From a virus (Duplodnaviria; Heunggongvirae; Uroviricota; Caudoviricetes), in the IMG/VR virus record IMGVR_UViG_2554235189_000003: DNA of 5,733 bases, one strand, 5' to 3'. Below are positions 4,518 through 4,739 of this stretch, one piece after another. Under the pieces are notes generated by a model. That model had not been told where the DNA came from. It saw only the letters and a list, made by a program, of their open reading frames with translations, and made no database searches. The first letter of the stretch is position 1. Every line of letters begins with the position of its first letter. A program made the position numbers and the translations under genes.

Positions 4518-4739
4518 ATGGCAAAAATCCAGTATCTGCAGGGCACGCATGATGCCCGGGCCGGGGATATCCGTGATGTGGCACAGCCGTGTGCGGAGGT
4601 GCTGGTTCGCCTGGGGAAGGCGGAGTACATCACAGCGCGACGTCCGGCAGGTCAGAAAAAGAAACATGATGCGGAGCATAGCGAATGTGGAACTTTTTGC
4701 GACGAACCCGAAAAAACCAGAAATCAGGACGTGATGTAA
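4518..4739 (+). CDS. Hypothetical small protein (73 aa) between capsid and portal; function unknown
   Basis: ORF MAKIQYLQGTHDARAGDIRDVAQPCAEVLVRLGKAEYI... uses enterobacterial-like codons (CTG, CAG, GCG, CCG, CGT) and has a mixed, protein-like composition. No Shine-Dalgarno within 15 nt of ATG 4518, and the ORF overlaps the predicted portal start by 55 nt in another frame. Could be a real small head or connector-associated protein, or a chance ORF. Confidence 0.35.
   Translation: MAKIQYLQGTHDARAGDIRDVAQPCAEVLVRLGKAEYITARRPAGQKKKHDAEHSECGTFCDEPEKTRNQDVM

Follow-up and report, generated by a model that had tools for sequence, protein, structure and literature searches.

Introduction

In bacteriophage lambda, gpFI is indispensable in vivo and links the prohead to the terminase–DNA complex; it occurs bound to the gpE lattice and is believed to work by binding DNA non-specifically (PMC13595911; PMC4856287). 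An acidic linker joins its SAP/HeH-like N terminus (a weak SAP match, E = 0.0018) to a C-terminal head-binding domain. Two other small prophage proteins, YqbF from a Bacillus subtilis prophage (PDB 2HJQ) and FluMu gp35/HI1506 from Haemophilus (PDB 2OUT), are said to have been linked structurally to gpFI by Popovic et al. in 2012. We know of no test of the function of either of them. In PBSX-like phages, yqbF comes after the capsid gene (PMC11526630); apart from this gene order, our literature search for DUF7210 and YqbF/HI1506 gave nothing useful. Here we describe ORF73, a small open reading frame (ORF) located between the capsid and portal genes in a 5,733-nucleotide (nt) stretch of DNA (hereafter, the window) from the Caudoviricetes virus record IMGVR_UViG_2554235189_000003. 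ORF73 is a conserved protein-coding gene, and its predicted fold and its genomic context suggest that it may encode a packaging chaperone of the gpFI and YqbF kind.

ORF73 is a conserved protein-coding gene

An initial annotation made from the sequence of the window had reported a 73-amino-acid (aa) ORF at 4518–4739 and regarded it either as an unrecognised small head-associated protein or as a chance ORF in a regulatory spacer. The coordinates and translation are exactly as it quoted them, and the PGAP annotation places a hypothetical protein, WP_001063023.1, at the same position. The length of the ORF is no evidence of coding, because about 15 such ORFs are expected by chance (17 of at least 73 aa were observed in the window, versus 15.3 ± 3.4 in composition-matched shuffles). 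The evidence that carries the case is of four kinds: family membership, synteny, frame-specific selection and the absence of stop codons.

A sensitive remote-homology profile search, which the initial annotation had proposed, matched ORF73 to the full length of phrog_829 in the PHROGs database (E = 1.1e-37, 129 bits; residues 1–63 on profile positions 1–63 of 63). Using the portal protein as a probe, we then gathered 39 loci from other species (loci are designated L and family proteins P below). Each of the 14 Enterobacterales-type loci that include the 5′ region of the portal gene has a homologue of ORF73, 35–70% identical, in the same slot. These loci derive from Pantoea, Kosakonia, Phytobacter, Atlantibacter, Entomohabitans, Citrobacter, Enterobacter, Buttiauxella and Erwinia, together with a contig labelled as a Chitinophaga metagenome-assembled genome (MAG).

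Over codons 1–39, the ratio of non-synonymous to synonymous substitution rates (dN/dS) among eight Escherichia coli copies is 0.074 in the ORF73 frame versus 3.2 and 1.8 in the other two frames. Across 15 cross-genus orthologues, for which dS is saturated, the ratio for the same codons is 0.146, and no stop codon interrupts the ORF73 frame, versus 21 and 55 stops in the other frames. The stops or frameshifts in homologues that would have marked the region as a non-coding leader are therefore absent from codons 1–39. The GC content at the first, second and third positions of these codons (0.72/0.39/0.69) resembles that of the neighbouring genes, whereas codons 56–73 give 0.50/0.39/0.39; the host-like codon usage ascribed to the ORF thus holds for its selected core and not for its end. 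Given family membership, synteny, frame-specific dN/dS and the lack of stops, we conclude that ORF73 is a real protein-coding gene, conserved across genera. Purifying selection on codons 1–39 and synteny across genera show the first of the two options, that of a small head-associated protein, to be right and the second to be wrong.

Three further ORFs overlap this region: 4449–4982 and 4724–5302 on the minus strand (177 and 192 aa), and 4549–4734 in the third plus-strand frame (61 aa). Within 4518–4739, selection acts on the ORF73 frame (codons 1–39) and on the portal frame (codons 56–73), not on the third plus-strand frame, and we treat the three ORFs as by-products of GC-rich coding sequence.

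Two of the loci call for comment. The contig with the Chitinophaga label (L007, NZ_DATCVJ010000643.1) is 3 kb long and carries a small gene and a portal gene whose products are 55–57% identical to those of E. coli, preceded by an Enterobacterales-type leader; it probably represents enterobacterial phage DNA that was mis-binned into, or contaminates, a Bacteroidota MAG. In Enterobacter bugandensis (L010, 4001–4387), the portal frame breaks after 128 codons and tblastn resumes at query residue 85 in another frame. The portal gene is likely to be a pseudogene in that prophage, in which the small gene is intact.

A predicted N-terminal domain shared by the family

AlphaFold2, supplied with a small but diverse alignment, predicts residues 1–40 of ORF73 at a predicted local distance difference test score (pLDDT) of 85–90 and leaves the remaining tail disordered. 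The predicted N-terminal domain (N-domain) is formed by strands at residues 2–6, 18–21 and 35–37 and a helix at residues 23–31. A core of about 38 residues is common to all family members, with the pattern M-K-I-R-Y-L-x-x-T-H-D-x-x-x-G-D-x-x-x-V-x-x-x-x-A-x-V-L-x-x-L-G-x-A-E. It is followed either by a Lys/Arg-rich tail or, in P0063 and P0066, by an acidic linker and then a HeH/SAP domain that scores above the Pfam thresholds. Nearly all matches from a word-indexed protein search, run with ORF73 and then with a broad alignment, were E. coli copies; the distant family members come from an exhaustive representative search, which yielded 29 proteins.

Known family models name the protein and do not explain it. 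The distant members P0052–P0066 also match phrog_829, and ORF73 itself weakly matches phrog_2616 (E = 6e-5). No Pfam or NCBIfam family covers the N-domain in ORF73 or in 32 family members; in these two collections, DUF7302 and DUF7210 are matched by relatives only, below threshold. All of these families (phrog_829, phrog_2616, DUF7210 and DUF7302), as well as phrog_29995 discussed below, are annotated as being of unknown function. The initial annotation could assign ORF73 to no family; a family is now available, its annotation is still without a function, and it is the fold and the context that provide a link to gpFI and YqbF.

The family may reach further. Alphaproteobacterial loci with related capsid and portal genes contain a gene of 68–129 aa in the same gap, and the N termini of some of these products align to the ORF73 core in the correct register (hhalign E = 5e-4, probability 31%). 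These syntenic proteins match phrog_29995 and phrog_2616, and one of them has a sub-threshold match to DUF7210 (PF23843; 18.2 bits, E = 0.0018, for a gathering score of 27 bits). ORF73 does not match DUF7210 in Pfam; Foldseek matches of its fold in BFVD include proteins named DUF7210. Most of the alphaproteobacterial genes encode a C-terminal motif, L-R-x-x-Y-x-x-x-x-G-K-x-P-x-x-G-W-D-x-E-T-L-x-x-K-I-x-E-A, which appears HeH-like by eye and is detected by no Pfam model.

Two types of N terminus occur among the alphaproteobacterial proteins, and both share the one C-terminal motif. The sequence MKSxSYMTRALRARDPRFAxILGKLGY is common (L012, L013, L017, L020, L026, L027, L032, L033, L035 and L037) and seems to keep only the helix and the last strand of the N-domain. 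The full TYGTRRLxAGDxF.. type is present in L018, L023, L025, L028–L031 and L034.

Comparison with gpFI and YqbF

The predicted N-domain of ORF73 has the three-stranded sheet and single helix of the gpFI head-binding domain (Packaging_FI, PF14000; PDB 2LSM), on which it superposes at 0.8–0.9 Å over 37–38 residues; YqbF (2hjq) and FluMu gp35 (2out) were also matched in the fold search. Gene position provides a second point of likeness. Lambda FI is a small accessory gene that directly follows the major capsid gene, E, and ORF73, starting at 4518, follows a capsid gene that ends at 4473; the direct post-capsid position of the small gene was observed in 14 orthologous loci. A third possible likeness lies in the parts of the proteins: both seem to join a docking domain to a flexible segment with a DNA-binding element, which would be HeH/SAP-like in gpFI and in the distant relatives of ORF73, and a Lys/Arg patch in ORF73 itself.

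There are also clear differences. The docking domain is C-terminal in gpFI and N-terminal in the ORF73 family, and ORF73 is half the size of gpFI and has no HeH domain. The gene that follows ORF73 is the portal gene, often with a stop–start overlap, whereas FI is followed by the head–tail joining gene FII. The order of domains is closer to that of YqbF and FluMu gp35, where the docking domain comes first and HeH last, as it does in P0063 and P0066, and YqbF is also encoded after a capsid gene. The C-terminal HeH motif of FluMu gp35 is the best PDB sequence match of P0063 (E = 0.025). ORF73 differs from these two proteins in lacking the HeH part, and Pfam gives it no YqbF match.

On this structural and contextual basis, we propose with moderate confidence that ORF73 encodes an FI/YqbF-like packaging chaperone in the head module of a lambdoid prophage of the type found in Shiga toxin (Stx) phages. 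It is probably a distant relative of gpFI and YqbF as well as a functional analogue; membership of this group is supported by structure and context, not by sequence. In the mechanism that we envisage, the N-terminal 40 residues would fold as the head-binding C-domain of gpFI does and dock on the major-capsid lattice of the prohead, and the flexible Lys/Arg tail (the HeH/SAP domain in distant relatives) would bind DNA non-specifically. Together, docking and DNA binding would tether the terminase–DNA complex to the prohead and aid its meeting with the portal. Capsid binding, DNA binding and the chaperone role are each suggested by the fold, the position and the parts shared with the known proteins. 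No FI-like gene other than ORF73 is annotated by PGAP in the E. coli head module.

Several observations weigh against this proposal. Packaging_FI is unmatched by ORF73 and the 32 family members in Pfam, even at E values up to 10 (lambda gpFI itself scores 199 bits), comparison of the family profile with lambda gpFI gives an hhalign probability of 0.4%, and profile searches of PDB sequences with the family alignments returned nothing relevant. A search for gpFI homologues from which to build a deeper profile listed only relatives of at least 86% identity, which is too shallow. Other members of the fold class outscore gpFI, and the fold itself is very small. Where morons have been inserted, the small gene stays with the portal gene and not with the capsid gene, and in most genera its stop is coupled to the portal start, which would fit a portal-associated role equally. 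In addition, an acidic C-terminal extension cancels the positive charge of the ORF73 tail, leaving a net charge of 0. Finally, we found no expression, virion, genetic or binding data for ORF73.

Coupling to the portal gene and loss of the ancestral stop

The portal start had been described as ATG 4685, preceded by GGAG at 8 nt and overlapping ORF73 by 55 nt (4685–4739), and our analysis bears this out in full. ATG 4685 is the first possible start, with an in-frame stop two codons upstream; the N terminus that it sets, MWN(P)F.., is kept across genera, and the PGAP start is identical. The small gene always lies directly upstream of the portal gene, at a gap of 0–23 nt, including in distant relatives with morons. 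In two loci, opposite-strand morons separate the capsid gene from the small gene: a PemK/MazE toxin–antitoxin pair in L044 (5254–5825) and a ribbon-helix-helix (RHH) gene in L041 (5502–5696). In both, which are exceptions to the direct post-capsid position, the small gene still adjoins the portal gene.

The 55-nt overlap is peculiar to the E. coli lineage. In 11 Enterobacterales-type loci the small gene ends in a TGA or TAA codon, the last A of which also begins the portal ATG (..cTGATGtgg..), and in three loci of Erwinia/Pantoea type (L011, L015 and L019) it ends about 19 nt earlier. All eight of the E. coli copies read GAATG at this position. Comparison of the sequences indicates that one T-to-G change removed the ancestral stop and added 18 codons in the E. 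coli lineage (codons 56–73, a count that includes the GAA codon at 4683–4685). In these codons, dN/dS is 0.98 in the ORF73 frame versus 0.17 in the overlapping portal frame; orthologues from other genera end at residue 55–58 and do not have the extension. As read from this substitution pattern, the Cys/His-rich extension is an unselected, lineage-specific by-product of stop loss.

The ancestral tail that precedes the extension (codons 40–55) is not conserved in its residue sequence (dN/dS 2.4, on few changes). Nearly all family members nevertheless carry a Lys/Arg cluster in their tails, and the net charge is +4 to +6 in the 55-aa orthologues.

Two A-runs, 4654–4666 (CAGAAAAAGAAAC) and 4711–4719 (GAAAAAACC), are the sites at which the frame changes in database variants of ORF73 (P0019, a cluster of 122 sequences, P0033, P0035, P0047, P0048 and P0050). 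Such variants are frequent and alter only the C-terminal part of ORF73. The second run lies within the first codons of the portal gene, so that slips there would truncate the portal protein too. A programmed −1 frameshift that fuses ORF73 to the portal protein was considered, the portal frame being the −1 frame of ORF73, and was rejected: the overlap is confined to E. coli, where the ORF73 frame is neutral, the A-runs do not form a canonical X XXY YYZ in frame, and database fusions resemble indel variants (P0073).

Alternative roles for the ORF73 product

The main rival to the chaperone proposal is a structural or portal-associated virion protein, either a capsid decoration or cement protein or a neck or portal accessory whose basic tail touches the end of the packaged DNA. 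It is favoured by the tight stop–start coupling to the portal gene: the small gene keeps its place upstream of the portal gene even in the presence of toxin–antitoxin or RHH morons, and the TGATG overlap seen in 11 loci points to co-translation. Permanent decoration would suit a capsid-binding fold just as well, and FI-like domains have been proposed as attachments of capsid proteins in other phages (PMC4493119). However, the module already encodes a gp6-like connector, a head-closure protein and a gp10-like protein, the tail of ORF73 is short, disordered and poorly conserved, and no virion proteomics were found that place the protein in particles. Moron insertion upstream of the small gene is expected anyway, because the junction with the capsid gene carries a terminator-like hairpin. 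We regard a structural role as unlikely on balance, yet as one to be kept in view.

If ORF73 were instead a translated leader only, the ORF would set the level of portal expression, through termination–reinitiation in most genera and, in E. coli, through ribosomes passing over the portal Shine–Dalgarno (SD) sequence and AUG, and the peptide would have no function. Portal protein is required in far fewer copies than capsid protein, the stop overlaps the portal ATG in 11 loci, the portal SD sequence lies inside the ORF, and the C-terminal third is free of constraint on its residue sequence, all of which would suit such a leader. The amino-acid sequence of codons 1–39 is strongly selected, though (dN/dS 0.07–0.15), its fold is confidently predicted, and the family has members in very different phages, with gaps of 3–23 nt to the portal gene and added HeH domains. 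It is therefore very improbable that the peptide is idle; coupling to the portal gene may be a secondary role of the gene.

The N-terminal domain of ribosomal protein bL9 and the GINS B-domain belong to the same fold class as the N-domain. This raises the idea that the N-domain mimics that of bL9, or otherwise binds RNA, and docks on 23S rRNA, on another structured RNA or on mRNA late in infection, altering translation. It would displace or imitate L9 and change frame maintenance, for example at tail-chaperone frameshift genes or at A-rich slip sites near the portal start, and its basic tail would contact RNA rather than packaged DNA. We find this hard to credit. The family profile compared with E. 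coli L9 (a hand-entered sequence) gives an hhalign probability of 0.1%, Pfam Ribosomal_L9_N (PF01281) is unmatched, the domain is neutral to acidic in many members (net charge 0 to −6), and the gene is fixed in the head-assembly module. Moreover, GINS and gpFI use the same fold for protein–protein docking. With no sequence-profile similarity and with other genomic contexts and partners, bL9 and the GINS B-domain are fold neighbours of ORF73 and not its functional family.

The C-terminal motif C-x-G-T-F-C had been read as a weak hint of metal binding, and ORF73 does contain three cysteines (C25, C57 and C63) and three histidines (H11, H50 and H54). That reading does not survive comparison with the relatives. 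C57 and C63 fall in the neutral, E. coli-specific extension, and orthologues stop before residue 57 or shortly after it (residues 55–58) and are without the motif. C63Y and H50R, along with S55G, are common variants in E. coli; C25 is replaced by D, H, Q, Y or A in other family members, and H11 alone is nearly invariant. Thus, no conserved set of three or four or more Cys/His ligands was found among the orthologues, where C57, C63, H50 and H54 vary or are missing, and disorder is predicted for the region. The idea of a small metal-binding protein with Cys/His ligands is scarcely tenable.

Finally, although ORFs of such lengths are expected by chance in a GC-rich window and no SD sequence lies within 15 nt of the start, a chance ORF in a non-coding portal leader has a virtually negligible probability in view of the family, the synteny across genera at saturated dS, and the selected, stop-free frame of codons 1–39.

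The location of the gene before the portal gene also led us to consider a gpW-like head-completion role. We rejected it, since the predicted fold differs from that of gpW and the module already has connector genes of the gp6, gp7 and gp10 kinds.

A conserved hairpin leader upstream of ORF73

The initial annotation had noted the lack of a nearby SD sequence for ORF73, which is literally true for the 15 nt upstream of ATG 4518. Beyond this distance, the start codon is preceded by a conserved GAGGAGG sequence and a hairpin. GGAG(G) is present at the 4481–4487 position in 21 of 21 aligned Enterobacterales sequences, and the rest of the spacer is variable. The minimum-free-energy fold of the 60-nt region includes the hairpin (−22.1 kcal/mol, z = −2.5). 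Among the same 21 sequences, 93.6% of the hairpin pair cells hold standard pairs versus 50–60% in slid controls, and two of the pairs show GC-to-AU double changes. The notion of a regulatory spacer is therefore right as far as the SD-like GGAGG and the conserved hairpin go; these elements are located upstream of the ORF and do not replace it.

A split SD sequence operates in the T4 genes 38 and 25, where a hairpin shortens spacings of 22 and 27 nt to 5 and 11 nt (PMC3014915). The arrangement upstream of ORF73 is similar: the hairpin is stable and conserved, and it would shorten the distance from GGAGG (4483–4487) to AUG 4518 from 30 to 8 nt, within the T4 range of 5–11 nt. By analogy, expression of ORF73 probably depends on this GGAGG–hairpin–AUG leader, which may be used as a split SD sequence.

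Unlike in T4, the ORF73 hairpin comes right after the capsid stop codon (4471–4473), and a U-run follows the stem in several orthologues (L011, L015, L040 and L003, with Erwinia, Buttiauxella and Kosakonia among the genera named). At the corresponding position, the distant loci L041 and L042 carry a classical terminator. The window has AGUAACAG after the stem, with no U-run, and a simple terminator scan gives no terminator at the hairpin; a search of Rfam with 4300–4900 gave no match. The hairpin may also, or instead, serve as a leaky terminator or as a 3′-end or mRNA stabiliser after the capsid gene, the product of which is needed in abundance. It has the look of a vestigial leaky terminator or mRNA-stabilising stem after a highly expressed gene.

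Genomic setting

The window corresponds to the head-packaging module of a lambdoid E. coli prophage, of a type common in Stx-converting phages; named carriers are BP-4795, 2851, YYZ-2008 and Stx1a, Stx2a and Stx2c phages. The coordinates of its features are collected in Table 1. PGAP names the protease–capsid fusion product 'phage major capsid protein', and the connector genes that it annotates in the E. coli module are gp6-, gp7- and gp10-like, with a head-closure protein in addition. The 501-nt stretch around ORF73 is found in 1,244 of 5,426 complete E. coli genomes at 88–99% identity, often in several copies per genome, and ORF73 occurs in 93 phage records.

Table 1 Features of the window, in order of position
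Feature	Position	Strand	Details
Small terminase gene (TerS)	251–814	+	Stop codon 812–814
Large terminase gene (TerL)	811–2472		
Prohead protease–major capsid protein fusion gene	2536–4473	+	Pfam Peptidase_S78 and Phage_capsid; phrog_617; directly upstream of ORF73
SD-like GAGGAGG	4481–4487	+	Immediately 5′ of the hairpin; 30 nt from AUG in linear form, 8 nt with the hairpin formed
GC-rich intercistronic hairpin	4488–4509	+	9-bp stem, 4488–4496/4501–4509; GCGA loop; 8 nt, then ATG 4518
ORF73, small protein-coding gene, phrog_829	4518–4739	+	ATG 4518 to TAA 4737–4739; 73 aa
Codons 1–39, β-β-α-β N-terminal domain (predicted fold)	4518–4634	+	Selected core
Codons 40–55, disordered linker with basic patch RRPAGQKKK	4635–4682	+	Ancestral C-terminal tail; AlphaFold2 pLDDT <50
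Portal SD sequence GGAG	4673–4676	+	Inside ORF73 coding sequence; 8 nt before ATG 4685; GGAG or GGGG in orthologues at this position
GAA codon at the ancestral stop position	4683–4685	+	TGA/TAA here in 11 other Enterobacterales-type loci
Portal gene, 5′ part	4685–5733	+	Pfam Phage_portal, E = 2e-69; phrog_2271 aligned from position 1; continues past the end of the window
E. coli-lineage read-through extension	4686–4739	+	17 codons (57–73) and stop; overprints the first 18 portal codons; contains C-x-G-T-F-C

The stop codon of TerS (812–814) lies within the start of TerL (811–813), an ATGA overlap of the same stop–start coupling style as that of the small gene and the portal gene in other genera. 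An IS1203 insertion interrupts the large terminase gene in E. coli O157:H7 strain SS NE 1040-1 (L001, 4099–7073); this is among several indications that defective prophages harbour many copies of the module.

Downstream of the end of the window, PGAP often calls the portal product a 'frameshifted' protein of about 860 aa (L001, 9286–11870, in E. coli O157:H7; L002, 4001–6549). There are really two ORFs, a portal ORF of 447–454 aa and then an ORF of 402–407 aa whose ATG overlaps the portal stop (ATGA). The portal protein is annotated as 455 aa in BP-4795 and PPyecE, and as a single 861-aa product in strain AR_0081. For the 402–407-aa ORF we obtained only sub-threshold matches to CBM_5_12, and no convincing family.

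Implications

The results do not overturn current understanding: they are a solid gain in annotation rather than a surprise. Two of them concern features of the locus other than the function of the protein. The GGAGG–hairpin–AUG leader adds a candidate split ribosome-binding site from outside the T4 group, and the stop-loss extension illustrates neatly, on a small scale, how an overprinted tail can be neutral and how eye-catching Cys/His motifs in such a tail can mislead.

Head modules of Stx1-, Stx2a- and Stx2c-converting phages and of related prophages carry the gene, which occurs in roughly one in four complete E. coli genomes and is everywhere annotated as 'hypothetical'. An assignment to the FI/YqbF kind would provide a testable function for phrog_829 and probably also for the far more numerous small phage proteins of DUF7210-like type. 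It would also extend the FI idea to HK97-like phages with a protease–capsid fusion, and may offer a handle on the production of Stx-phage particles.

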